Shown here: piece by piece, positions 1-12,414 of the stretch
How positions within the stretch are numbered: position 1 is the first letter of the stretch
How the letters are laid out: every line of letters begins with the position of its first letter
Virus record (IMG/VR): IMGVR_UViG_3300043399_001247
Coordinates: 1-50,703 of that record
DNA length: 50,703 nucleotides
From: a virus
Taxonomy: Duplodnaviria; Caudoviricetes
Direction: 5' to 3' (one strand)
Position numbers and translations under genes: made by a program
The notes under the pieces: generated by a model
Told to the model about the DNA's origin: nothing
Databases searched by the model: none
What the model saw: only the letters and a program-made list of their open reading frames with translations

Positions 1-10
1 TGGAGGCCGC

Positions 11-265
11 ATGAAGTATCGCAAAAAGCCCGTGGTGATCGAGGCGCATCAAGTCACCGTGTTCAACTTGGAGTCTGTCGCCGAGTGGTGCGGCGGACAA
101 GTTGTGCGCGGCACTGCGGATGCCAAGCACCGCCTGATCGCCATCCGCACCCTGGAAGGCGTCATGGAAGCCGCTGTGGGCGACTACGTGATCCGGGGCA
201 TCAAGGGTGAGTTCTATCCTTGCAAGCCCGACATCTTTGAAGCAACTTACGAGGAGGCCGAGTGA
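11..265 (+). CDS. Conserved small phage protein (KYRKKPVVIEA...GEFYPCKPDIF family)
   Basis: GGAGG SD before the ATG; matches a widespread phage hypothetical family (RKKPVVIEA, TLEG, GDYVI, YPCKPDIFEATY). Confidence 0.8.
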   Translation: MKYRKKPVVIEAHQVTVFNLESVAEWCGGQVVRGTADAKHRLIAIRTLEGVMEAAVGDYVIRGIKGEFYPCKPDIFEATYEEAE

Positions 266-591
266 TGGCCATTGAAAGAGCGGACGCGCCCCCGAGCGCG
301 GCAGACATCCTGGACGCCATGGCGGCGACGTTCCGCGAGCGCAACCGGGTGTATGGCAGCAACTACAAGATGGTGGCGCCCCTGGTGCGCGTGCTGTTCC
401 CGCACGGGGTGCCTTCCGAGCTGGTGGCCAGCGACAAGTGGCACCTGTTCGAGCTCATCTTGGTGAAGCTCTCGCGGCTGGCGATCAGCAACTTGCAACA
501 CGTGGATTCCGTCCACGACATGGGCGTGTATTGCGCGATGGTCGAGCAGTGCATGCTGGAAGAACAACCCACAAACATGGAGGTCCAATGA
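265..591 (+). CDS. Nucleotide-modification-associated (Nmad1/DUF6378-like, MazG-like helical) protein
   Basis: Motifs ERNRVYG, KLSR, DSVHDMGVY resemble all-alpha NTP-pyrophosphohydrolase-like phage families; translationally coupled to both neighbours. Confidence 0.55.
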   Translation: MAIERADAPPSAADILDAMAATFRERNRVYGSNYKMVAPLVRVLFPHGVPSELVASDKWHLFELILVKLSRLAISNLQHVDSVHDMGVYCAMVEQCMLEEQPTNMEVQ

Positions 592-1268
592 GCGAGATTT
601 TGGTGACCGGCGCGGGTGCCGGGTTAGGCAAGGCGATCGCCGACAACTTGTCGGCGCACAATCACGCGGTCTACCGCTTCGACCGCAAGTTCGGCGCTGA
701 CGTGCGCAACCCCAACGGGACGTACGGCCTGCCGCCGGTCGGGCTGGACGTGCTGATCAACTGCGCGGGCATCAACAAGACCGCGTGGCTCGAGGACTTG
801 CCCGAGGACCAGTGGGACGAGGTGATGGACATCAACGCCAAGGGCATCTACAAGATGAGCCGCTGGGCGCTGCCCGAGCTCATCAAGACCCGGGGCACCA
901 TCATCAACGTGGTGAGCAACGCTTCGCACATACCGATGACGACGAGCCTCGCCTACAACGCCAGCAAGGGCGCGGCGCACATCATGACGCTCCAGATGGC
1001 CCGGGAGCTCAGCAAGAAGCATGGCATCACCGTCTTCGGCATCAGCCCCAACAAGCTCAAGGGCACCGAGATGTCGCAGGACATCGAGGACCAGGTCGTC
1101 GCGCTGCGCGGCTGGACGCCCGAATACGCGCAGCAATACCAGCTCAACGCGCTGCTCGCCGGGGAAGAGACCGACCCCGAACAGCTGGCACAATTCGTCG
1201 CGTACCTGCTCACCAGCAAGGCGCATCACAAGTACCTCACGGGGTGCGTAATTCCCTACGGAGCATGA
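588..1268 (+). CDS. SDR-family NAD(P)-dependent oxidoreductase
   Basis: TGAGAGLG Rossmann motif, LINCAG, NVVS, catalytic YNASK; ATG at 588 overlaps the upstream stop (ATGA). Confidence 0.9.
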   Translation: MSEILVTGAGAGLGKAIADNLSAHNHAVYRFDRKFGADVRNPNGTYGLPPVGLDVLINCAGINKTAWLEDLPEDQWDEVMDINAKGIYKMSRWALPELIKTRGTIINVVSNASHIPMTTSLAYNASKGAAHIMTLQMARELSKKHGITVFGISPNKLKGTEMSQDIEDQVVALRGWTPEYAQQYQLNALLAGEETDPEQLAQFVAYLLTSKAHHKYLTGCVIPYGA

Positions 1269-1609
1269 CAATGGACCAACAATTCCCCAAGCCGCGCACC
1301 CGCGTCGAAGTCACCGATCTCTATGAGAAGATCGTCCAAACCGACTACGCCCGCGTCGAAGGCACGACCATGACTCTGTGCGTGCTGCACCTGAAGAACG
1401 GACACACCGTGATCGGCAAGAGCGCTTGCGTCGACCCCAAGCAGTTCAATCAGGCGCTGGGCGAGAAGTACGCCTTCGAGGACGCGATCAATCAGCTGTG
1501 GCCCCTGGAAGGCTACCTGCTGCAAGAAGACCTTTACCGCAACGCCCAGAACAACGCGGCGGCCGCGCAGTTCAACCCAGAAGTTGAGCAGCCCAACGAC
1601 GTTGCGTGA
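1265..1609 (+). CDS. Phage gp49/66-family protein (candidate Acb4-like nucleotide sponge)
   Basis: TLCVLHLKNGHTVIGKSACVDPKQFNQALGEKYA...LWPLEGYLL is the N4 gp49/Sf6 gp66 signature; start at 1265 or 1271. Confidence 0.8.
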   Translation: MTMDQQFPKPRTRVEVTDLYEKIVQTDYARVEGTTMTLCVLHLKNGHTVIGKSACVDPKQFNQALGEKYAFEDAINQLWPLEGYLLQEDLYRNAQNNAAAAQFNPEVEQPNDVA

Positions 1610-1618
1610 GGACGAGCC

Positions 1619-1870
1619 GTGTCAATCGCAAACAACTACTTGTGGGACCCGCAGCGGGGGGACGCTTATGAGCGAGAGATGATGCGCAAGCAGGAAATGC
1701 TGCGACAACACGAGTGGCATCAGCGGATGCGCGGCATCAGCCCGATCGACAACGGCGGCACGGGCCGCTCGATCGCAGCGAACCCCGTCGAAGTCGTTGA
1801 CCCCAAAGACCCCCTGGCCTTTTTGAAGAAGGCCGACAAAACCGTTTTGCTCACAGGAGAAGCATTATGA
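1619..1870 (+). CDS. Hypothetical protein
   Basis: ORF in the operon, GAGG upstream, coupled to next gene. Confidence 0.55.
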   Translation: MSIANNYLWDPQRGDAYEREMMRKQEMLRQHEWHQRMRGISPIDNGGTGRSIAANPVEVVDPKDPLAFLKKADKTVLLTGEAL

Positions 1871-2151
1871 AACTGAAGCCCTTTGCCGACCTGATCGCCT
1901 TGTCCAAGGAGAAGCTGGCCGAATCCCTCGCCCCCATCCGCGCGCGCAAGGTGCGGTCGCAGGCTGAGCTCGAGATGGCCAAGCTCGACGACGAGCTGAT
2001 CCGGCTCGAAGCCGACATCCAAGAGCAATGCGCCAAGGAGGACATCAACTTCCCTTCCTTGCTCGACAAGCTCGACAAGGTCGCGCTCCTCGAGCGCCGC
2101 AAGACCCAGTACGAAGAAGTGCTCAAGCAGCTCTTCCCCGCCAAGGCCTGA
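1867..2151 (+). CDS. Hypothetical coiled-coil protein
   Basis: AGGAG SD, ATGA overlap, phage-like codon use. Confidence 0.7.
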   Translation: MKLKPFADLIALSKEKLAESLAPIRARKVRSQAELEMAKLDDELIRLEADIQEQCAKEDINFPSLLDKLDKVALLERRKTQYEEVLKQLFPAKA

Positions 2152-2155
2152 TTTC

Positions 2156-2222
2156 GGGGCCGAAAGCGGATGCTGCGTAGTGCCGTCACGGACTCCGGAG
2201 CGCAGTGCAGCGAGTAGGCCCC
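2156..2222 (+). ncRNA. Candidate structured intergenic RNA element
   Basis: Outer stem GGGGCC/GGCCCC, internal loop GAAA.../AGUA, inner stem GCUGC/GCAGC; lies just before the VOC gene SD. Confidence 0.4.
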
Positions 2223-2248
2223 ACCACTTCAACAACAAGGAACCAAAA

Positions 2249-2734
2249 ATGAAATTCTTCATCGAACAAGTCGCCCTTTGCCCCACCAACCCGGAGAAGG
2301 CGGTCGCGCTGCTCAAGGAGCTCGGCCTCACTGAGTGGGTGCAGGACCGCGTCGTGGCTGAAGGCCGCGTGCACGGCGTGCCGGGCCGCAACGAAGCCGA
2401 CCTGGCTTTCAACTATGACGCCACCCGCCCCGAGGGCAAGCCGCTGGAGCTCGAAGTGCTGCACTATGCTCGCGGCACCAACTGGATGGAGCAGCACCCC
2501 AACACGGTCAGCCACCTGGGCATGCATTGCACCGCTGAAGAGCTGGGCGAGTTCCGCCGCAAGTTCGCTGACATGGGGTACAAGGTCGCGCAGGAGGTGT
2601 TCACTGAGAGCCACACCAACCCGTTCCTGCTCGAGACGGGCCGCAAGTACCAATACGTGATCTTCGACACGCGCGCCGTGCTGGGGGTGGACATCAAGCT
2701 GATCGTTCGCAGGGAAAAGCAAAACCAGGAGTAA
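2249..2734 (+). CDS. VOC/glyoxalase-superfamily protein
   Basis: IEQVAL, ELEVL, SHLGMH, YVIFDT...GVDIKLI fit a methylmalonyl-CoA-epimerase-like VOC pattern; AAGGA SD before ATG 2249. Confidence 0.7.
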   Translation: MKFFIEQVALCPTNPEKAVALLKELGLTEWVQDRVVAEGRVHGVPGRNEADLAFNYDATRPEGKPLELEVLHYARGTNWMEQHPNTVSHLGMHCTAEELGEFRRKFADMGYKVAQEVFTESHTNPFLLETGRKYQYVIFDTRAVLGVDIKLIVRREKQNQE

Positions 2735-2736
2735 CC

Positions 2737-3270
2737 GTGGGTTGCGTGTACAAAGTTGTTTTGAGCAGCGGGAAAGCGTACATCGGTTTGACAACCAAGA
2801 CGATGTGCGCCAGACTCTCTTCTCACAAAAAAGACGCCGGTCGCGGAAGCAAACTCTTGTTCCACAAGGCATTGAGGGTTTATCAAGTTCTCTGCGCACA
2901 AGAACTTTTTGTTTCTGACGACGAAGACATTTTGTCTTCTTTCGAACAAGCCGCAATCGCACAACACTGCACACGCGTTCCGCAAGGCTACAACTTGACG
3001 AGCGGCGGCGAAAAGAGTTTCGCGCACCACGAAGAGACGCGAGCCGCCATATCCGCGATGATGATTGGCACTCAACGCCGCCTCGGCTCTAAACACAGCG
3101 ACGAGTCCAAGGCTCTGATGCGCCAGAAAAAGCTCGGCAGAAAGTTGAGCGAAGAAACACGCAGGCGCATGTCGGAGTCGAGGAAGGCATTCTATGCGAT
3201 CGCAGAAAACCGCGCAGCGCTTGTTGAAGCGCGTCGCGCTCAAGCGGCAAAAAGGAGAATTTCAGAATGA
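2737..3270 (+). CDS. GIY-YIG homing endonuclease with NUMOD3-like repeats
   Basis: CVYK...YIGLT, GYNLTSGG, HSDESKALM, LSEETRRRMS; visibly more AT-rich than flanks. Confidence 0.85.
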   Translation: MGCVYKVVLSSGKAYIGLTTKTMCARLSSHKKDAGRGSKLLFHKALRVYQVLCAQELFVSDDEDILSSFEQAAIAQHCTRVPQGYNLTSGGEKSFAHHEETRAAISAMMIGTQRRLGSKHSDESKALMRQKKLGRKLSEETRRRMSESRKAFYAIAENRAALVEARRAQAAKRRISE

Positions 3271-3875
3271 GCGAATTCGTTTGTGTATTTGACGTGGAAA
3301 CCACAGGCCTGCCGCTGCACCCTTCGGCCCCGCTGGAAAAGCAGCCGAAGATCATTGAGCTCGGCGCCGCGCTCCTGGACCGGGAAGGCAAGGTCGTCGA
3401 GACGTTCAGCCAGCTCGTCCACCCGCGCGAGTCGGTGACAGAGGAGATCACCAAGATCACCGGCATCACCAATGAGATGCTGGTGGACGCGCCCAACTTC
3501 GAGGAGTGCCTGCCGCAGCTGCGGCACGTGTTCGGGCAAGCCTTCGCCGTGTTTGCGCACAACTTGCCGTTCGACCGGCTCATGCTGCGCAACGACCTGA
3601 AGCGCTTGGATTGCCTGGACTTCCCGTGGCCGCGCGGCGAATACTGCACCGTCGGGCTGCATCGGGGCGAGTGGGGCCGCAACCCCAAGCTCATCGAGCT
3701 CTACGAAGCCACCATGGGCCGTCCCCTGCCCCAGACCCACCGGGCGCTGGACGACGTGATGGCGCTGGTCGAGGTGGTGCTGGCGCGCGGCCTCCACACC
3801 ATGGCGTTCGACGAGCGCGACGCCGCAGCACAACCTCAAGAACCCACGCCTGCAGCTGAGGAGCCCGCAACGTGA
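3267..3875 (+). CDS. DEDDh 3'-5' exonuclease (DnaQ/epsilon-like)
   Basis: FDVETTG, AHNLPFD and HRALDD Exo I-III motifs. Confidence 0.92.
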   Translation: MSEFVCVFDVETTGLPLHPSAPLEKQPKIIELGAALLDREGKVVETFSQLVHPRESVTEEITKITGITNEMLVDAPNFEECLPQLRHVFGQAFAVFAHNLPFDRLMLRNDLKRLDCLDFPWPRGEYCTVGLHRGEWGRNPKLIELYEATMGRPLPQTHRALDDVMALVEVVLARGLHTMAFDERDAAAQPQEPTPAAEEPAT

Positions 3876-4075
3876 ACCCGACCAACAGACTGCGATTTGT
3901 GCGGCGCAAAGAGGTTGTCGGGCAAGAAGGCGACACAACTATCACGCGTCGGGTGCGCATCCTGCAACAGTGGTGGGCGCCACAAAGAAGTTTTTCCGAC
4001 GGCTATGGCTATCAGACTGTCGAATTGCACGGCGGCGAATGGCGCGACATCCCGCTAGAGGTGGAGCAAGAATGA
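3872..4075 (+). CDS. Hypothetical protein
   Basis: Coupled to both neighbours by GTGA/ATGA overlaps. Confidence 0.6.
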   Translation: MNPTNRLRFVRRKEVVGQEGDTTITRRVRILQQWWAPQRSFSDGYGYQTVELHGGEWRDIPLEVEQE

Positions 4076-6891
4076 CCCTCCCGCAGCTGCGTTGCCGCAC
4101 CGAGTTTTCATTCCGGCAGGCCTTCGGGCCGGTGTCCCGGGTGGCGGCGGCCGCTGCCGCGCTGGGCGCTCCGGCGGCGGGGATCGTGGACGGTTCGACC
4201 TGGGGTCACGTCCGGTGGGCCAAGGCGGCCGCAAAAGAAGGCTTCAAGCCACTTTTCGGCACCGAGCTCACCGCTCCCTTCCCCGACGGCCGCAAGCCCC
4301 AGGCGTGGGCGTTGGCTGAAGATACGCGTTCTTTCTACCGCTGGTCCACGGCGCTACGCCAGAAAGAGGCCGATCCGCTGGCGCTCCTGGCGGACGCGAA
4401 GGGCGTTGTGCGTTTTTCTGGCCCGGGGCTGACGGACCCGGCGCTGTTCGATTACGTGGACCTCAACCCCAACTCCCCGGTGGAGCAGCGCGCGGCGGTC
4501 GCCCTGGCCCGCCGGACGGGCAAGCCGCTGGTCGTCACCAGCGCCAACAGCTACCCCCGCCGCGAGGACTACGACGCCTTCATGGCGATTGGCGGGCGCG
4601 AATCGACCACGCCGCAGCACCTGCTCAGCGCGGCCGAGCTGCGGCAACACATCCGGGTGCTGGACGACGCCGCGTGGGAGCAGGCCGTGCGCAACACTCA
4701 CGAGGTGGCCGAGCGGTGCGCGGGCGCGCTGCCGACCGCCCCGATCATTCAGGTCGCGGGCGACCTCCGCGCGCTGGCGGAAGCGGGGCGGCAGCGACGC
4801 TTGGCGCTCGGACACTTGCCCTCCTGGCCCGAGGAATACGCCGCGCGGCTGGAGCGGGAGCTGGTGGCGATCGAGCAGAAGGCGTTCGAGAGCTACTTCA
4901 TTGTCGTGGCCGACCTGATCGAGTGGGCCAAGCACCGCATGCTCGTCGGCCCCGGGCGCGGCTCGTCGGCGGGGTCGCTGCTGTGTTACTTGCTGGGCAT
5001 CACCGAGGTCGACCCAATCCCGCACGGGCTGCTGTTCGAACGGTTCATTGACCTGACCCGCAAGGACTTGCCCGACATCGACATCGACTTCAGCGACGTG
5101 AAGCGCGAGCAGTGCTTCGAATACTTGGCCGACAAGTATGGCCGCAACTGCGTGGCACGGATCGGCAACGTGAACACCTTGAAGCCGCGCTCCGTGATGG
5201 CCGAGGTGTGCAAGCGCTTCGGCATCCCCGACAAGGAGCGGTTCGACCTGCTCAACGTGCTGATTGAATACAGCTCGGGCGACAGCCGGTATGGCAAGGG
5301 GCTCGAAGACACCCTCAACAACACCGAGACGGGCAAGAAGTTCATGGCGCGGCACCCCAAGGCCGTGGTCATGAGCGAGGTGGAAAACCACGCCTGGCAC
5401 ACCGGGGTGCACGCCGCCGGGGTGATCGTGTGCAACGTGCCGGTGGACGAGTTCTGCACCATCGGCCCGGACGGCGTGGCGCACATCGACAAGCCCGACA
5501 GCGAATATCTCAACCTCCTGAAGATCGACGCGCTGGGGCTGCGCACCCTGGGCGTGATCGAGGACAGCGGCTGCGTGACCGCCGAGCAGCTCTACGGGCT
5601 CAAGTTGGACGACCCGGCGGTGTTGGACATATTCAACCAGCGCAAGTACACCGGCATCTTCCAGTTCGAGGGGCAATCCCAGCGCACCATCTCCGCGCAG
5701 GTGCACGTGGACAACTTCCGCACGGTGGACCACCTCACGGCGCTGGCGCGCCCCGGGCCGCTCGGCGGCGGCGCCACGGGCAAGTACATTGCGCGCAAGG
5801 CGGGAGCCGAACCCGTGAGCTACACGCACCCCGCCCTCCAGGAGCTCCTGCAGGACACCTACGGGGTGGTGCTCTACCAGGAACAGGTGATGCGCATCGT
5901 GCGCGACCTGGGCAAGTTCTCCTGGGACGAGACGACCGTGATCCGCAAGGCGATGTCTGGCCGCAAGGGCAAGGAGTTCTTCGACCAGCAAGGCGCAAAG
6001 TTCATCGCTGGCGCGGCGCAGGACGGCATCGACGAGGGCACGGCGCACGAGATCTGGAACGAGATCTGCAACTTCGGCGCGTGGGGCATGAACAAGAGCC
6101 ACACCTGCGCGTACGCGGTGATCAGCTACTGGTGCGCGTGGATGAAGGCGTACTACCCGTTGGAATACGCGGCGGCGTGCTTGCGCTCGGCCAAGGACGA
6201 CGACCAGACCATGGAGATCTTGCGCGAGATGGCCGCCGAGGGGGTGGATTACGTCGCGTTCGACCCCGAGCTCTCGGACGTGAACTGGGCCGTGCGCGAA
6301 GGGCGGCTGGTGGGCGGGTTCCTGAACTTGGTGGGCTTCGGCCCCTCGAAGGCGGTCGCCGCCGTCGAAGCGCGCCGCCTGGGCAAGATGGACGACAAGC
6401 TCCGCAAGCGTATCGCCGAGGCGCACGTGAAGTTCGACGACCTCTACCCAATCAGCCGCAAGTACGCCGCGTGGTACGCAGACCCTGCGGCGCACGGTTG
6501 CCGTGTTGGCTCCGTCATCTACAAGGCAGACGCTATGCCCGACCGGGGTGACATCCTGTTCATCGGCAAGGTCGTCAAGAAGGAGCTCCGCGACGAAAAT
6601 GAGACCGTGCGCGTGGCGCGGCGGGACGGACGCCGCCTGACGGGGCCGACGATCTTCGCGGACTTTTTCTGCAAGGACGACACCGGCATCCCGATCATCT
6701 GCCGCGTGGACCGCAAGGACTTCGAACCCCTGGGGCGCATTGCAATGGAGCGGCTCGTCGCCGAGCAGGACGTGATCCTGGTGCGGGGTCGCAAGATACC
6801 GAATTTCGGGATGATCAAGGTCGAGCGCATGAAGGTGCTCAACAGAGAGGAGAGCTTGCGTGAGGAAGCCGGAACAACGCTTGTGGGATAG
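4072..6891 (+). CDS. dnaE: DNA polymerase III alpha subunit (family C)
   Basis: GPGRGSSAGS, LLFERF, PDIDIDF, HAAG, KIDALGL, GIFQFE, YQEQVM, NKSH; likely start MTLPQL at 4072. Confidence 0.95.
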   Translation: MTLPQLRCRTEFSFRQAFGPVSRVAAAAAALGAPAAGIVDGSTWGHVRWAKAAAKEGFKPLFGTELTAPFPDGRKPQAWALAEDTRSFYRWSTALRQKEADPLALLADAKGVVRFSGPGLTDPALFDYVDLNPNSPVEQRAAVALARRTGKPLVVTSANSYPRREDYDAFMAIGGRESTTPQHLLSAAELRQHIRVLDDAAWEQAVRNTHEVAERCAGALPTAPIIQVAGDLRALAEAGRQRRLALGHLPSWPEEYAARLERELVAIEQKAFESYFIVVADLIEWAKHRMLVGPGRGSSAGSLLCYLLGITEVDPIPHGLLFERFIDLTRKDLPDIDIDFSDVKREQCFEYLADKYGRNCVARIGNVNTLKPRSVMAEVCKRFGIPDKERFDLLNVLIEYSSGDSRYGKGLEDTLNNTETGKKFMARHPKAVVMSEVENHAWHTGVHAAGVIVCNVPVDEFCTIGPDGVAHIDKPDSEYLNLLKIDALGLRTLGVIEDSGCVTAEQLYGLKLDDPAVLDIFNQRKYTGIFQFEGQSQRTISAQVHVDNFRTVDHLTALARPGPLGGGATGKYIARKAGAEPVSYTHPALQELLQDTYGVVLYQEQVMRIVRDLGKFSWDETTVIRKAMSGRKGKEFFDQQGAKFIAGAAQDGIDEGTAHEIWNEICNFGAWGMNKSHTCAYAVISYWCAWMKAYYPLEYAAACLRSAKDDDQTMEILREMAAEGVDYVAFDPELSDVNWAVREGRLVGGFLNLVGFGPSKAVAAVEARRLGKMDDKLRKRIAEAHVKFDDLYPISRKYAAWYADPAAHGCRVGSVIYKADAMPDRGDILFIGKVVKKELRDENETVRVARRDGRRLTGPTIFADFFCKDDTGIPIICRVDRKDFEPLGRIAMERLVAEQDVILVRGRKIPNFGMIKVERMKVLNREESLREEAGTTLVG

Positions 6892-7285
6892 GCTGCGCGC
6901 GGCGTGCGCGGGGCAGGTGCGCACCGAGCGCATCGAAAATGTGGTCGGAGTCGGCCGCCCGGACGTGGACACCTTGGTCGCCGGGAGCTTTGTTCCCGTC
7001 GAGCTCAAGCAAGTGGACGGATGGCCCGCGCGCTCCAGCACCCGGGTGTTGGGCGACGAAGGGTTGAGCCAAGTGCAAAAGAACTGGCACCTGGACTGGC
7101 GCAACTGGGGCGGCACTTCGCTCATCGTGGTCGGGGTCGGGCAGGAGGTGTTCGCCTTCAGCGGCGAGCGCGCCGACGAGGTGAACGGATACAACACGGT
7201 GCAGTTTCAGAACGCCGCAATCTGCTCCGGCGTGCAAGCCGTGGTCGGGCTGCTCGTGAGCATGGGCAACAAGGGGAAGGCGTGA
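6860..7285 (+). CDS. PD-(D/E)XK nuclease (VRR-NUC/Holliday-junction-resolvase-like)
   Basis: E..LW, RIEN, GRPD, VELK, Q..WH motifs; lies next to the SNF2 helicase. Confidence 0.8.
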   Translation: MRKPEQRLWDRLRAACAGQVRTERIENVVGVGRPDVDTLVAGSFVPVELKQVDGWPARSSTRVLGDEGLSQVQKNWHLDWRNWGGTSLIVVGVGQEVFAFSGERADEVNGYNTVQFQNAAICSGVQAVVGLLVSMGNKGKA

Positions 7286-8751
7286 AAACCTCAGGCATGA
7301 AGCACCAGCTGGAAGCCGTGCAACGCATGGTCGGGCGGCGCACGTACGCGCTGTTCATGGAGCAGGGCACGGGCAAGACCTGGACCTTGCTCGCCGACTT
7401 GGAGCGCTTGTACGCCAAGGGCACCATCGACGCTGCGCTGGTCGTCGCCCCCAACGGGGTGCACCTCAACTGGGTCAACCGCGAGATCCCCACGCACATG
7501 GAAGGCGAAATTGTCGCCCGCGCATGGCGCTCCGGGGCCGGGGTGCGTTACCGCAAGCACCTGGAACAGATCATGCAGCCGCGCGCCGAGGGGTTCCCGG
7601 TGCCGCTGCGGATCCTGGCCGTGAACATTGACGCGCTGGTGACCAAGGCGGGGTACGAGTTTTGCGAGCGGTTCCTGAACGCGACCAAGGCGCTCATCAT
7701 CGTGGACGAGAGCGGCCGCATCAAGAACCCCGACGCCGGGCGCACCAAGGCGCTGATGAAGTTGCGCAAGAAGGCGCTGGGCGCACGGATCGCGACCGGC
7801 ACCCCGATCACCAAGGCTCCGACCGACGTGTTCGCGCAGCTGGAGTTCCTGGAAAGTGGCTTGTTGGGCACGACCAGCTACCGCGCGTTCGTGGCCGAAT
7901 ATTCCGACGTGTTGCCCGCCAGCCACCCGCTGATGCAAAACATGATCCGCCGCAACCCGCGCGCGGCGTTCGCCCAGATTGTCGCCAAGAACCCCGACGG
8001 CTCGCCGCGCTACCGCAACCTCGACAAGCTGCAAAAGCTCCTCGAGCCGCACTCGTTCCGGGTGCTGAAGAAGGACTGCCTGGACCTGCCCGAGAAGATC
8101 TACAAGGTGTTGCCCTTCGAGCTCGAGCCCGCTCAGCAGCGCGCGTACGAGAAGATGGAGGAGGAGCAGCGCATCGAGCTCGACGACCGCACCGAGCTGC
8201 CGGTGAGCGAGCTGGCCGCGCTGGTGAAGTTGCAACAGATCACGAGCGGCTTCGTCAACCTGCCCGGCGGCGCGGGCGTCCGATACGTGAGCGAGGACAA
8301 CCCCCGGCTCAAGGCGCTCATGGACGCGGTGCAGGACGTGGACGGCAAGTTCGTCGTCTGGGCCCGGTTCACCGAAGAGATCGCGGCGATCCAGGAGGCG
8401 ATGCAAAAGGCGGAGATACGCGCCGTGAGCTACTACGGGGCCACGAGCCGCGACGACCGGGAGGCCGCCGTGGACGGGTTCCAGAACGACCCCGAGATCC
8501 GCTGCTTCATCGGCAACGCACAGGCCGCAGGCATCGGGCTGACCCTGACGGCGGGCGAGACCGTGTTCTACTACAGCAACTCCTTCGACCTGGACCACCG
8601 CCTGCAGTCCGAAGACCGCTGCCACCGCATCGGCACGCGCAACAACGTGGTGTACATCGACTTGGTCGCCGAAGGCACCGTGGACGAGAAGATCGCCCGC
8701 AATCTGCGGCGCAAGAAGAACGTGGCCGCACTGGTGCTGGGCGACGCCTAG
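7282..8751 (+). CDS. SNF2-like superfamily 2 helicase
   Basis: MEQGTGKT, VDES, TGTP, GIGLTL, QSEDRCHRIG motifs. Confidence 0.92.
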   Translation: MKTSGMKHQLEAVQRMVGRRTYALFMEQGTGKTWTLLADLERLYAKGTIDAALVVAPNGVHLNWVNREIPTHMEGEIVARAWRSGAGVRYRKHLEQIMQPRAEGFPVPLRILAVNIDALVTKAGYEFCERFLNATKALIIVDESGRIKNPDAGRTKALMKLRKKALGARIATGTPITKAPTDVFAQLEFLESGLLGTTSYRAFVAEYSDVLPASHPLMQNMIRRNPRAAFAQIVAKNPDGSPRYRNLDKLQKLLEPHSFRVLKKDCLDLPEKIYKVLPFELEPAQQRAYEKMEEEQRIELDDRTELPVSELAALVKLQQITSGFVNLPGGAGVRYVSEDNPRLKALMDAVQDVDGKFVVWARFTEEIAAIQEAMQKAEIRAVSYYGATSRDDREAAVDGFQNDPEIRCFIGNAQAAGIGLTLTAGETVFYYSNSFDLDHRLQSEDRCHRIGTRNNVVYIDLVAEGTVDEKIARNLRRKKNVAALVLGDA

Positions 8752-9743: not shown

Positions 9744-10577
9744 ATGAGCGAGAAAGAAGTAGCCGTGGTTGAAGAGAAGACCACCGCGCTGGCCCCCAGC
9801 GGGCTGATGGACTTTGCCGCCGACGCGGGCGCGGGCATGGAAGGTGCCGGGCAGGAATCGTTCGCGATCCCGTTCCTGAGCGTGCTGCAAAAGGGCTCGC
9901 CGCAGGTGGACGAAGCCTCTGGCGCGGCGATCGAAGGTGCCAAGGCGGGCATGCTGTTCGAAAACGTCACCGGGCGCATGTTCCCGGGCAAAGAGGGCGT
10001 GCTGATCGTGCCGTGCTCCTATCGCCGCGAGTTCCTGCGCTGGGGTGCCCGCGACAACGGCGGCGGCTTCAAGGGCGCGTTCACCGCTGAGGAAGTGGCC
10101 GAGATGCGCAACAAGGGGCAGATCGTTGAGTTGGAAGGCAAGCTCTACGCCCCCGAGCCGGACGGCTCCGTCAACGAAAAGAAGAGCGACCGCTTCAACG
10201 ACACGCGCAACCACTACGTGCTGATCCTGGACGAGAAGACGGGCGCTTGGGCCGAGGCGCTGCTCTCGCTCACCAGCACCCAGATCAAGAAGTCCAAGGC
10301 GCTCATGTCCGCGCTCGCCGCTGTGAAGCTCAAGAACGCGGCGGGCCAGATGTTCACGCCGCCGACTTTCGCCAACGTTGTGCGCGTGACGACCACGCCT
10401 GAGTCGAACGACAAGGGCACTTGGTTCGGCGTCAAGTTCGAGCTCGCCGGTCAGGTCGACCGCACCGAGGTCTATGCGGCCGCCAAGGCGTTCCACGCCA
10501 ACATCGCCAAAGGCGGCGTCCAAGTGAAGTACGAGGACAACGTCGACGACGCCCCCACCGAAGCCGCCGGTTTCTGA
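9744..10577 (+). CDS. Putative single-stranded DNA-binding protein
   Basis: IPFLSVLQKGSPQ, ESNDKGTWF; acidic C-terminal tail ending in Phe; replication context. Confidence 0.6.
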   Translation: MSEKEVAVVEEKTTALAPSGLMDFAADAGAGMEGAGQESFAIPFLSVLQKGSPQVDEASGAAIEGAKAGMLFENVTGRMFPGKEGVLIVPCSYRREFLRWGARDNGGGFKGAFTAEEVAEMRNKGQIVELEGKLYAPEPDGSVNEKKSDRFNDTRNHYVLILDEKTGAWAEALLSLTSTQIKKSKALMSALAAVKLKNAAGQMFTPPTFANVVRVTTTPESNDKGTWFGVKFELAGQVDRTEVYAAAKAFHANIAKGGVQVKYEDNVDDAPTEAAGF

Positions 10578-10679: not shown

Positions 10680-11438
10680 ATGACCGAATCAACACGCGAA
10701 CGCATCCGTTGGAACGCCGCAGAGCGGGACGCCGTGATGGCCGAGATCACTCGCCTCGTCGCAGGCGGCGCGCAGGGCTGGTCCACGCAATTCCTGCTGT
10801 CCACAGCCCAAGAGGTGCTGCCAATGCACCGCCGCCGCATCATGCAAGGGGCCGCCGTCACCAACTTGAAGCCGCTAGTGCAAGCGGCTCGGGAGGCGGC
10901 CAAGAACCAACCGAAGCCTCAACCCCAGGCAACCCCTCAGCCAGAGGCTGCCGCGCCCAACCCGGCCACGCCTATTGAAGCCCTGATGGCAGAGATCGTC
11001 GACCGGGTGGCCGAGCGGGTGGCCAACTTGGTTCTCGACCGGATTGCGGACGTGCTGGCGCCGCCGGTTCAGTTCACGCCGGAGCTCGCGGCTGAGCAGG
11101 CTTGCTTGACCTGGAAGGCCGCGACGGAGCGCGCCCGGCGGCCCGGGGTGCTGATTGTCGGCTTGCTCGGGGCGCAACGCACGACCGTGAAGTCGCTGTT
11201 CCCGCATCTGGACATAACGACCCTCACGGCGGACGAAGCTGTTTCTCGCCCCGCCATCCGCCGTGCGCACACCGTCTTGATGACCAAGTTCATAAACCAC
11301 TCGGTGCAAGAAAAATACCGCAAGGCCGACAATCTGTTGTATTGCAACGGCGGCGTCACCGACCTGATCGCCACGCTCAACACGATCGCCGCCCAACCCG
11401 CCACTCAGAAGAACGACCATGCAGCACTGGATCATTGA
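10680..11438 (+). CDS. Hypothetical protein
   Basis: AAAGGA SD, 252-aa ORF. Confidence 0.65.
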   Translation: MTESTRERIRWNAAERDAVMAEITRLVAGGAQGWSTQFLLSTAQEVLPMHRRRIMQGAAVTNLKPLVQAAREAAKNQPKPQPQATPQPEAAAPNPATPIEALMAEIVDRVAERVANLVLDRIADVLAPPVQFTPELAAEQACLTWKAATERARRPGVLIVGLLGAQRTTVKSLFPHLDITTLTADEAVSRPAIRRAHTVLMTKFINHSVQEKYRKADNLLYCNGGVTDLIATLNTIAAQPATQKNDHAALDH

Positions 11439-11613
11439 GCTTTTCCGCAAGCCGAGCGCCGAGGTCTTGGCGCAGCGGGAGCTGGAAGACGCGCAACGCA
11501 ACTTGCTGGAATGCCAGCGGATGCGCGATTACTACGAAAATATGGTCAACTTCAACTCTGTCCGGATCAAGCAAACCCGCGCCATGCTGCGCGGCTGTGC
11601 CGACAAGCAATGA
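11419..11613 (+). CDS. Hypothetical protein
   Basis: Coupled small ORF. Confidence 0.55.
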   Translation: MQHWIIELFRKPSAEVLAQRELEDAQRNLLECQRMRDYYENMVNFNSVRIKQTRAMLRGCADKQ

Positions 11614-11816
11614 CCGACCAAATTCGCCCCTCCGACGACCGCGCCGCGATGGTGGACAGCGGGTATTTCTGGCGCAAGATCGACGCGAGCACGCCGACAG
11701 GGGTGAAGATCCAACTCGTCAACCGCGCCGCCGGAGTGGCCGTCTATGGCACGCTCGGCGGCCGCGAGCGCTTTTTCACGCACTGGGCTCCGCTGCCCAA
11801 GTTCCCCGAAGAGTGA
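11610..11816 (+). CDS. Hypothetical protein (DUF551-like end, THWAPLP)
   Basis: ATGA overlap; WRKI..TP and THWAPLP motifs. Confidence 0.6.
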   Translation: MTDQIRPSDDRAAMVDSGYFWRKIDASTPTGVKIQLVNRAAGVAVYGTLGGRERFFTHWAPLPKFPEE

Positions 11817-12217
11817 TGTACCACAAGCACGTCAAGAAGAGCGTCGCGCTCAACCCGGTCGCGCGGGCCGTGGCGCGCAAGGCGCTGCAAGAAGCGATCA
11901 CAACGCGCAAGATCGAGCTTTACATGATGAGCGCGGGCGATCCCTGCGAGGACGTGTGTGCGCGCATCGGGTTCACGCTCTCCGTGATCGCGGCAGCCGC
12001 GCAGCGAGATCCCAAGGTCGGCGAAGACGACCCCCGGGTGCGGATCTTGCGCGGGGCGATTTCGGCTTGCGTGCAGATGGCCGACGCGGACAAATACGAA
12101 ACCACCAACACCGTGGCGCTGGACCGGGCGCTGGACTTGGCCGTCGAGCTCAACGGGGTCGTCGATCCAGCGCTGATGAACCAGGTGTTCAACGAGTTCA
12201 CTCGAGCTGGCGCCTGA
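11816..12217 (+). CDS. Hypothetical protein
   Basis: TGATG coupling; start MYHKH. Confidence 0.6.
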   Translation: MYHKHVKKSVALNPVARAVARKALQEAITTRKIELYMMSAGDPCEDVCARIGFTLSVIAAAAQRDPKVGEDDPRVRILRGAISACVQMADADKYETTNTVALDRALDLAVELNGVVDPALMNQVFNEFTRAGA

Positions 12218-12414
12218 TGCCGTGGGCTTACATCCTCAGCCTTTTGGGCCCCGGCATGCATTGGGGCCGCACGCAAGAAGAGTTGCTCGCGGCGATTGAC
12301 CGCGCTCGCCGCGAAGGGCAACCCGCAGCCGCAGAACACATCGAGATAATGCTCGACTTGCGCAATGTCGTGCGCATGGACAAGCCTCTCAAGAAAGAAG
12401 CCCCGGAAGCGTGA
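12217..12414 (+). CDS. Hypothetical protein
   Basis: TGATG coupling; last gene of the + arm. Confidence 0.5.
   Translation: MPWAYILSLLGPGMHWGRTQEELLAAIDRARREGQPAAAEHIEIMLDLRNVVRMDKPLKKEAPEA

Follow-up and report, generated by a model that had tools for sequence, protein, structure and literature searches.

A 50,703-nucleotide stretch of viral DNA (Caudoviricetes; the linear IMG/VR record IMGVR_UViG_3300043399_001247, referred to here in its full length as the window) raises the question as to why a phage should carry genes for a short-chain dehydrogenase/reductase (SDR) and a vicinal oxygen chelate (VOC) enzyme upstream of a DnaE-type replicative polymerase of its own. An earlier note on this DNA had described the run as a tightly packed candidate module for a new modified base or sugar, comprising an Nmad/MazG-like helical protein, an intact SDR, a VOC/glyoxalase protein, an exonuclease and DnaE; it proposed that the linkage of these genes be checked in relatives, and that partner genes may lie upstream of base 1. 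We find that, across 73 loci of IMG/VR and 51 records of isolates, the SDR and VOC genes are strictly co-inherited beside the exonuclease and DnaE genes, and that the association recurs in actinophages. It is plausible, though we would stop a little short of calling it probable, that the products form a route in which a phosphatase, then an NAD-dependent dehydrogenase and then a VOC epimerase or isomerase act on a nucleotide-derived substrate, for precursor supply or clean-up.

The SDR gene (588–1268, + strand) encodes a classical SDR of 226 residues that matches Pfam adh_short at E = 1.3e-34 (119.8 bits against a cut-off of 26.6), and it is intact, as had been claimed. The motif TGAGAGLG fits the TGxxxGxG consensus, the active site is Y123-x3-K127 (the YxxxK motif), and the residues T7-G8-x3-G12-x-G14, N83, S110, Y123 and K127 are invariant among 49 relatives. 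In SDRs an aspartate at the end of β2 marks a preference for NAD rather than NADP, and the presence at this position of D32, which is at least 90% conserved, indicates that the enzyme is probably of the NAD type. The Rossmann fold, TGxxxGxG motif and N-S-Y-K tetrad are common to the classical NAD(P) SDRs such as FabG, EntA/DhbA and butanediol dehydrogenase, from which the phage enzyme differs in a shortened β2–β3 region and in an R-G-W...Y loop kept across four phage lineages; the substrate loop has a conserved Arg and Trp. Beyond the generic SDR motifs, the residues W67, P116, T160-x-M162, R174-G175-W176, A181 and Y184 recur in the SDRs of each of the four lineages, which points to what is probably a single phage SDR subfamily acting on one kind of substrate.

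The VOC gene (2249–2734, + strand) encodes a 161-residue protein that likewise agrees with the earlier description. It matches Glyoxalase_4 with 32.7 bits (cut-off 27), and its AF2 model (pLDDT 94.4) has the VOC fold, with eight strands in two beta-alpha-beta-beta-beta modules. The best solved match of the model is 3gm5 (Z 15.5, rmsd 2.2, 133 of 161 residues, 20% identity; the next match has Z 11.1), a putative methylmalonyl-CoA epimerase, and Foldseek matches the model to the methylmalonyl-CoA epimerase-type fold at E = 2.9e-8. Solved chains with Z ≥ 5 number 38, and those listed are glyoxalase/VOC-type dioxygenases or epimerases, or uncharacterised. While the methylmalonyl-CoA epimerases (3gm5, 6wf6, 1jc5) have the same single-chain two-module fold, the phage protein is only 11–20% identical to them, appears to have Lys in place of the β8 Glu, and has a conserved S-H-T-N motif (121–124) for which we know of no counterpart. 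Kinship with characterised methylmalonyl-CoA epimerases at the sequence level was not found in searches of the PDB with two VOC profiles (A1 and A3), which gave no VOC chain at E ≤ 1 and E ≤ 10, respectively, and only chance-level matches; the likeness is one of fold. A fold search of BFVD gave as its best match (E = 3.7e-3) an uncharacterised giant-virus protein. The residues Q7, E67, E69, H89, H93, H122, N124, R132, Y136 and K150 are invariant in the family, and Q7, E67/E69 and H89 fit the usual metal-ligand strands, with K150 at β8, in a register taken from secondary structure rather than from superposition. A pairing of diol dehydrogenase with extradiol dioxygenase (BphB/BphC-like) was considered but not favoured, the VOC fold being nearer to epimerases than to dioxygenases; NAD+ salvage was a further idea considered.

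The VOC family is restricted to phages and virtually absent from bacterial genomes. It forms 868 clusters at 90% identity among 5.8 billion proteins, all of them unnamed, with the longest contig among the 120 clusters listed being 62.7 kb, and strict peptide patterns recovered it from the genomes of 185,579 species only in two small contigs (4.1 kb and 479 b). With a GC content at third codon positions (GC3) of 0.91 and 0.86, the SDR and VOC genes match DnaE, for which the value is 0.90, and so are long-resident genes.

Could these then be ordinary auxiliary metabolic genes, a FabG-like ketoacyl reductase and a glyoxalase or methylmalonyl-CoA epimerase that tune host lipid or central metabolism or detoxify methylglyoxal? 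The PHROG label of the SDR is 'FabG-like 3-oxoacyl-ACP reductase', in the category moron/AMG; its top solved and NCBIfam neighbours are generic (FabG, EntA, butanediol dehydrogenase, hydroxyacyl-CoA dehydrogenase), and the closest folds of the VOC protein are methylmalonyl-CoA epimerases and glyoxalase I. However, no equivalog cut-off is approached: a FabG identity was rejected with scores of 100.3, 90.3 and 88.3 bits against cut-offs of 222, 296 and 297.75, and the best NCBIfam score of the SDR is 101 bits against cut-offs of 215 or higher, less than half of what any curated equivalog requires. Nor is there a sequence-level match of the VOC protein to a solved chain at E ≤ 10; its near-absence from bacterial genomes argues against a recently captured host gene, and a fixed place within the replication modules of four phage lineages, in the company of a nucleotidase-type phosphatase of the haloacid dehalogenase (HAD) family, is not typical of morons. 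We regard this explanation as quite unlikely. A pterin or folate route was also rejected, since no FolM-like family is among the best 25 of 197 NCBIfam matches.

The gene immediately upstream of the SDR gene (262–591, + strand) encodes the helical protein of 109 residues that had been taken for an Nmad/MazG-like protein, an assignment that we replace with a putative DUF6378 domain. The protein itself scores 21.2 bits against this model (PF19905), under the 27.1 cut-off, but 36 of 50 relatives match it at E ≤ 0.01, DUF6378 clusters make up 29 of its 30 ESM neighbours, with a top score of 0.95, and the protein matches positions 233–329 of the 339 of phrog_4889. No kinship with MazG was found: PF03819 has no match in the record at E ≤ 0.01, and the DUF6378 profile (A4), aligned by hhalign to two phage MazG-like proteins, gives probabilities of 0.12 and 0.22. 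Kinship with Nmad1 was not found either, its model DUF1599 (PF07659; the Pfam 'nucleotide modification associated domain 1') matching nothing in the window at E ≤ 1 and not matching this protein at E ≤ 0.01. Fold searches with the monomer model (pLDDT 87) return non-specific helical matches (best Foldseek E 2, best VIA Z 6.2; MazZ, 7ody, at Foldseek rank 34 with E 5.9 and TM 0.29), which is not in itself a sign of a new fold, and searching the PDB with the profile gives only chance-level matches. The co-occurrence of SDR, VOC, Nmad and DnaE that had been put forward for testing holds for SDR, VOC and DnaE, with DUF6378 rather than Nmad as the helical partner.

The DUF6378 family comprises 2093 clusters at 50% identity (from a representative-library search with profile A4, in which the best 150 of 2093 hits were listed), with Y31, P47, H61, K69, R72, H80, D82, S83 and D86 invariant. 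Of its longer, fused members, 72 of 86 carry a HAD_PNKP domain with near-invariant DxD residues, so that DUF6378 is chiefly the C-terminal domain of a phosphatase. An arrangement of related kind, a dUTPase–ThyX–Nmad1 block in which DUF1599 is linked to ThyX, is described for Asgard archaeal viruses in bioRxiv 10.1101/2021.07.29.453957. There too a small helical domain is linked to ThyX, as it is in the window's relatives, but in the window this domain is DUF6378. One metagenomic protein, P0121 (318 aa), is the only fused form of the phage VOC domain found, and joins it to a DUF1599-like helical domain. DUF1599 clusters are 18 of the 30 ESM neighbours of this helical domain (score 0.94), hhalign against the DUF6378 profile gives a probability of ∼0.2, and the search found no short homologues of the N-terminal domain.

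If DUF6378 is chiefly part of a phosphatase, where is the phosphatase? Neither a HAD domain nor ThyX was found in the window record. The nearest relative is the IMG/VR locus L009, in which DnaE, VOC and SDR are 94%, 84% and 81% identical to those of the window, and in which ThyX (Thy1, E = 5.7e-31) is followed in turn by an unknown protein of 226 aa, HAD_PNKP (E = 2.7e-10), p84, DUF6378, SDR, Gp49_66, VOC, exonuclease and DnaE. In addition, a 472-nt contig from a public freshwater run matches window positions 1–290 with 0 mismatches and overhangs base 1 by 182 nt. Judged from these alignments, ThyX and the HAD domain are located upstream of the point at which the record is cut, and the expectation of partner genes upstream of base 1 is supported. 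Of the partner types that had been suggested, a thymidylate synthase is present in L009 as ThyX.

In the isolates Pluto, Carpasina and Bas99 the order is ThyX, a 'polynucleotide kinase' or hypothetical protein, SDR, a hypothetical protein, exonuclease and DnaE. The Pluto-type 'polynucleotide kinase' in fact consists of a phosphatase domain, HAD_PNKP, extended at its C-terminus, and the 109-aa protein of the window aligns to residues 357–441 of the Pluto protein with 44% identity. Among phages, T5 Dmp and the PBS2 dTMPase provide comparators as HAD-type deoxynucleotidases. Phage and cellular HAD deoxynucleotidases and the 3′-phosphatase of T4 PseT resemble the cassette HAD in that such PNKP/NT5C-type HADs are likewise found among phage nucleotide and replication genes, but the cassette HAD differs in having DUF6378 fused or adjacent, in being coupled to a dehydrogenase and a VOC protein, and in having no kinase domain.

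An alternative role is that of a nucleic-acid end-healing or damage unit in which a PNKP-type phosphatase clears 3′-phosphates from DNA or RNA ends while the SDR and VOC proteins process oxidised or aldehydic sugar remnants for the exonuclease, DnaE and a ligase. The PNKP phosphatase domain is indeed the best Pfam match of the HAD, which also has a weaker match to the 'Swiss Army Knife' RNA repair protein HAD, and its neighbours include an exonuclease, a polymerase and an SNF2 helicase, with a ligase in relatives. Yet the HAD lacks a fused or adjacent kinase or ligase domain, its actinophage counterpart scores as the NT5C deoxynucleotidase type, and we know of no SDR or VOC enzyme that acts on polynucleotide ends; an end-healing unit is thus in our estimation very unlikely.

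How constant is the company that these genes keep? The 73 IMG/VR loci were collected by pattern search with the VOC alignment and scanned by tblastn (E ≤ 1e-5) with the proteins of the window and its relatives as queries, counts being limited to loci with enough flank. The SDR gene is beside VOC in 61 of 61 loci, and DUF6378 (54 of 54), ThyX (38 of 38) and DnaE (47 of 47) are equally constant; the exonuclease is present in 56 of 58 and the HAD in 40 of 49, where the nine misses may be divergent rather than absent. SDR and VOC are spaced by 10 nt or less in 38 of 72 loci, and the gaps of 980 nt in the window and 891 nt in L009 are there because inserts fill them. Among 50,697 phage records, SDR and VOC are both found in the same 51 Lindbergviridae-type records. 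HAD-DUF6378 and DnaE without VOC or SDR are found in 291 Pseudomonas Pbunavirus records and in Burkholderia phage WTB, and none of the 55 VOC records is from a Pseudomonas phage. From this distribution SDR and VOC appear to be an accessory pair that was joined to an older block of ThyX, HAD-DUF6378, exonuclease and DnaE. As a separate observation, in the 4.4-kb contig of locus L060 (4196–4393) the first 66 DnaE residues are on the opposite strand right after the exonuclease gene, through inversion or an assembly artefact.

Lindbergviridae isolates (Wifcevirus Bas98–101, FEC19 and ECML-117; Myosmarvirus; Carpasinavirus; Plutovirus; Kylevirus) share the order ThyX, HAD-DUF6378, SDR, VOC, exonuclease, DnaE and SNF2 helicase, and their proteins are ∼49% (DnaE), 49–54% (SDR) and 50–58% (VOC) identical to those of the window, which differs from them in having HAD and DUF6378 split and in the additional p84, Gp49_66, two open reading frames (ORFs) and a GIY-YIG endonuclease. 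The annotations of the SDR and VOC genes in these isolates are just 'FabG-like reductase' and 'hypothetical/glyoxalase'. The genes are thus common in published genomes under generic names, and the literature searched assigns them no function.

An accessory, phage-specific pair of this sort might also serve in counter-defence, with the cassette breaking down a toxic, host-made nucleotide analogue or an immune signal derived from nucleotides. Besides its restriction to phages, the occurrence of the pair in some genera of Lindbergviridae but not in Pbunavirus, and the insensitivity of Wifcevirus to all but one of the defence systems tested, are in line with such a role. Arguing in the other direction, the genes are located among replication genes rather than among early or anti-defence genes, they are strictly linked to ThyX and DnaE across lineages, and they have no likeness to known anti-defence enzymes, although the PADLOC library was not searched. 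We consider counter-defence a very doubtful explanation.

Recurrence outside Lindbergviridae is seen in actinophages. Microbacterium phage Ajin and the loci L080 and L081 encode a FAD-type oxidoreductase, a HAD phosphatase, an SDR, a VOC protein and a 215-aa DUF6378 protein, followed by DnaE, so that the same four functions are present in an order changed relative to that of Lindbergviridae. The VOC proteins share 39–42% identity, and the nearest relatives of the Ajin DnaE are those of actinophages (identities of 45% with a Mycobacterium phage, 43% with a Gordonia phage and 30–37% with Lindbergviridae). In Mycobacterium phage Giuseppe and Gordonia phage Ranch, a FAD-oxidoreductase (39–44% identical to that of Ajin), a HAD, a methyltransferase and a 156-aa protein precede an SDR, which directly adjoins DnaE upstream, and a ThyX-like gene follows. 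The HAD of these two phages is of the NT5C type (31.9 bits, cut-off 24.8), and the HADs of L009, Giuseppe and Ajin are all in phrog_415; hhalign of the Giuseppe HAD with the DUF6378 profile gives a probability of ∼0.2. Families of this sister cassette include phrog_8720 (the FAD-oxidoreductase), phrog_10271 (the 156-aa protein) and a SAM methyltransferase. We also note that the sister cassette is found at 3587–6711 of L084 (Mycobacterium, Plotvirus) and at 2790–6681 of L085 (Gordonia, Lambovirus), and that in Ajin (L006, 8305–11802) the DnaE annotation is divided between genes 61 and 63, with a small ORF between them.

Taken over these lineages, the full cassette would consist, in order, of ThyX, HAD(PNKP-type)-DUF6378, an NAD-type SDR, a methylmalonyl-CoA epimerase-like VOC protein, a DEDDh exonuclease and DnaE. 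From the gene identities, their linkage, the phage restriction and the intact catalytic residues we infer a step order, a class of substrate and a purpose. The phosphatase would strip a phosphate from a nucleotide-type substrate, either a (deoxy)nucleoside 3′- or 5′-phosphate or a sugar phosphate related to these; the SDR with NAD+ would oxidise the exposed hydroxyl to a ketone; and the VOC enzyme would use this carbonyl for an adjacent proton transfer, resulting in epimerisation or isomerisation, or in elimination. A nucleotide-derived substrate is the best guess given the constant company of ThyX and the phage replicase, and the route would serve precursor supply or clean-up of the DnaE replisome of the phage rather than a genome-wide protective modification. 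A predicted complex of SDR and VOC scored 0.00, which in a prediction run without controls is evidence neither way.

Several observations weigh against this route. HAD_PNKP domains are best known for acting on polynucleotide 3′ ends, so that the first step could target DNA or RNA ends instead of free nucleotides. In VOC enzymes the β8 position is usually a metal-binding Glu, and the Lys modelled there (K150) makes the chemical class of the third step uncertain. That step would also not be universal, since the Giuseppe and Ranch cassettes lack VOC and have in its place the methyltransferase and the unrelated 156-aa protein (hhalign probability of the Giuseppe protein against the VOC profile, ∼0.2). 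Replication by DnaE can evidently dispense with the pair, since Pbunavirus and WTB have neither SDR nor VOC. Finally, a syntenic block passed on vertically would account for most of the linkage within Lindbergviridae, and because linkage in a single family can be plain inheritance, the recurrence in actinophages is the more telling.

Should a route of precursor supply be correct, it would reveal an activity not previously known for a VOC protein and an SDR and give DUF6378 its first functional context. Phage nucleotide-metabolism cassettes beside the polymerase have repeatedly yielded new DNA chemistry and enzymes, and this one has been kept together in at least four phage lineages, with hosts in Proteobacteria and Actinobacteria. 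It is present in the cultivable and genetically tractable E. coli K-12 phages BASEL Bas98–101, and the Pbunavirus phages, close relatives that are themselves widely used in therapy, lack SDR and VOC and thus offer a natural comparison.

Does the product enter DNA, as the earlier note had supposed? In that explanation the cassette makes a non-canonical base or sugar that reaches the DNA either by way of the dNTP pool and the private DnaE or once replication is over, and so protects the genome. The cassette is between ThyX and the exonuclease and DnaE genes in every relative examined, its enzymes fit no known modification route, and in P0121 a VOC homologue is joined to a domain resembling DUF1599 (Nmad1). 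The mismatch with known pathways stated by the earlier note is borne out, in that ThyA-like, TGT/DpdA, PurZ-like and MazG models have no match in the record. Specifically, the ThyA-like hydroxymethylase (PF00303), PurZ-like (PF00709) and DpdA/TGT (PF01702) models found no match in the 50.7-kb, 5′-cut record; of 14 control genomes, 10, 14 and 14, respectively, gave a response. The clusters for thymidine or cytidine hypermodification, dZ and 7-deazaguanine resemble the present one in that enzyme genes accompany phage replication and nucleotide genes with a gene of a thymidylate-synthase family nearby; the window differs in that these ThyA-like, DpdA/TGT, PurZ and MazG-type genes were not found in its record and in that the thymidylate synthase of its relatives is ThyX. 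To our knowledge SDR and VOC enzymes are no part of the known hypermodification, dZ and 7-deazaguanine routes.

The composition of the genomes speaks against protection. Avoidance of palindromes is what DNA exposed to type II restriction usually shows. It was measured here against a maximal-order Markov expectation with both strands pooled, a procedure that raises every z value to the same extent and so leaves the contrast between word classes valid. Of the 49 palindromic hexamers, 43% fall below a z of −2 in the window, compared with 5% of the non-palindromic ones, with CCGCGG observed once (49.8 expected), GCCGGC 5 times (39.2 expected) and GGCGCC 25 times (58.4 expected). Among the 73 related loci, six 20-kb loci from different branches have 28–49% of palindromic hexamers at z < −2, against 3–4% of others. 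One of these, L063, whose HAD protein is 99% identical to that of Bas99, avoids A/T-containing sites (TCCGGA 0 against 7.5 expected, AGCGCT 0 against 8.5, GATC 46 against 100). In the window CTAG, too, is depleted (16 against 36.6 expected).

Such avoidance argues against a genome-wide protective modification, and site avoidance by itself may explain tolerance of restriction-modification systems; a modification that is sparse or has no protective role would still be compatible with it. No glycosyltransferase was found in the 50.7 kb either, and nothing places the product in DNA; we judge a new base or sugar that protects the genome to be unlikely. For the Wifcevirus phages Bas98–101, PMC11990801 describes restriction resistance and very rapid replication, each as unexplained. 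A narrower version, that HAD/DUF6378, SDR and VOC turn a deoxynucleotide into a non-canonical DNA constituent (for example, one with an epimerised or otherwise altered sugar, via a 3′-keto intermediate) that DnaE inserts at some positions, seems to us improbable to a similar or slightly greater degree; if true, this constituent would be an undescribed kind of DNA modification and would supply the missing explanation for the tolerance of Wifcevirus to restriction.

The phage to which the cassette belongs is best placed by its DnaE, which is ∼49% identical over 98–99% of its length to those of the Luteibacter phage Pluto and of Serratia MyoSmar-type, Xanthomonas Carpasina-type and E. coli Wifcevirus phages. 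The PB1-like genera concerned are now the family Lindbergviridae, according to PMC12451628. The best matches of the window's DnaE, SDR and VOC proteins are all members of this family and the order of replication genes is identical, with the 12 core proteins checked only in part; from these comparisons the window is most readily classified as a PB1-like myovirus (Lindbergviridae) with its record cut at the 5′ end. At the nucleotide level, megablast of window positions 1–7000 gave no match among the 50,697 phage records. CheckV estimates completeness at 93%, which may be too high, given that relatives are 61–73 kb long. Genes from base 1 to ∼12,400 are on the + strand and closely packed, and a long − strand block then extends from 12.5 to ∼47 kb.

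The claim that the run is tightly packed is right. Six gene junctions have 4-nt overlaps and starts are preceded by GGAG-like sites. Five ORFs that had gone unmentioned interrupt the run, and are for the most part missing in relatives: a Gp49_66-family gene, two small ORFs, a homing endonuclease gene and orf67. The Gp49_66-family gene (1265–1609, + strand; PF13876, E = 3.5e-23) starts within an overlap with the SDR stop, and among the 73 loci a homologue at the SDR–VOC site is found only in L009. The two small ORFs (1619–1870 and 1867–2151, + strand; 83 and 94 aa) have no Pfam or PHROG match. Between VOC and the exonuclease is the GIY-YIG/NUMOD3 homing endonuclease gene (2737–3270, + strand; NUMOD3 27 bits, phrog_314 E = 5.5e-22), a mobile insert with a GC content of 0.53 and a GC3 of 0.59, against a GC3 of 0.85–0.93 in neighbouring genes. 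The distance between VOC and the exonuclease is 39 nt or less in 33 of 67 related loci, and endonuclease genes of similar kind adjoin ThyX in L030 and L035. The last, orf67 (3872–4075, + strand), has no Pfam or PHROG match and overlaps both neighbours by 4 nt.

The gene at the start of the run, p84 (11–265, + strand), encodes a small phage protein with a match to phrog_419 (E = 1.3e-36) and none in Pfam. Its only homologue among the 73 loci is in L009, and it is a lineage-specific insert outside the conserved cassette. We note that p84 and the Gp49_66 protein match separate parts of phrog_419 (positions 42–124 and 214–285), and that p84 has a further match at the N-terminus of phrog_4159, labelled 'nucleotide pyrophosphohydrolase'.

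The exonuclease and DnaE of the earlier note are upheld. The exonuclease gene (3267–3875, + strand) encodes a DEDDh (DnaQ-like) 3′-5′ enzyme (RNase_T E = 3.6e-23, phrog_192 E = 1.1e-36), and the polymerase gene (4072–6891, + strand) a DnaE-type protein of 939 residues with matches to DNA_pol3_alpha (E = 2.3e-63, 214.7 bits) and to the finger domain (E = 7.5e-39, 133.2 bits); the PHP domain scores 24.5 bits, under the 26.4 cut-off. The SNF2 helicase gene, identified by Pfam and PHROG, follows at 7297–8751 (+ strand). Within the replication module there is also a gene for a Pam3_Gp34-like protein (PF23977, E = 1.6e-76) at 9744–10577, and downstream of it are five ORFs at 10680–12414 with no PHROG match. 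None of the runs listed as matching the window is an RNA run; the matching contigs come from 15 public sequencing runs, all of DNA, from freshwater or wastewater metagenomes.

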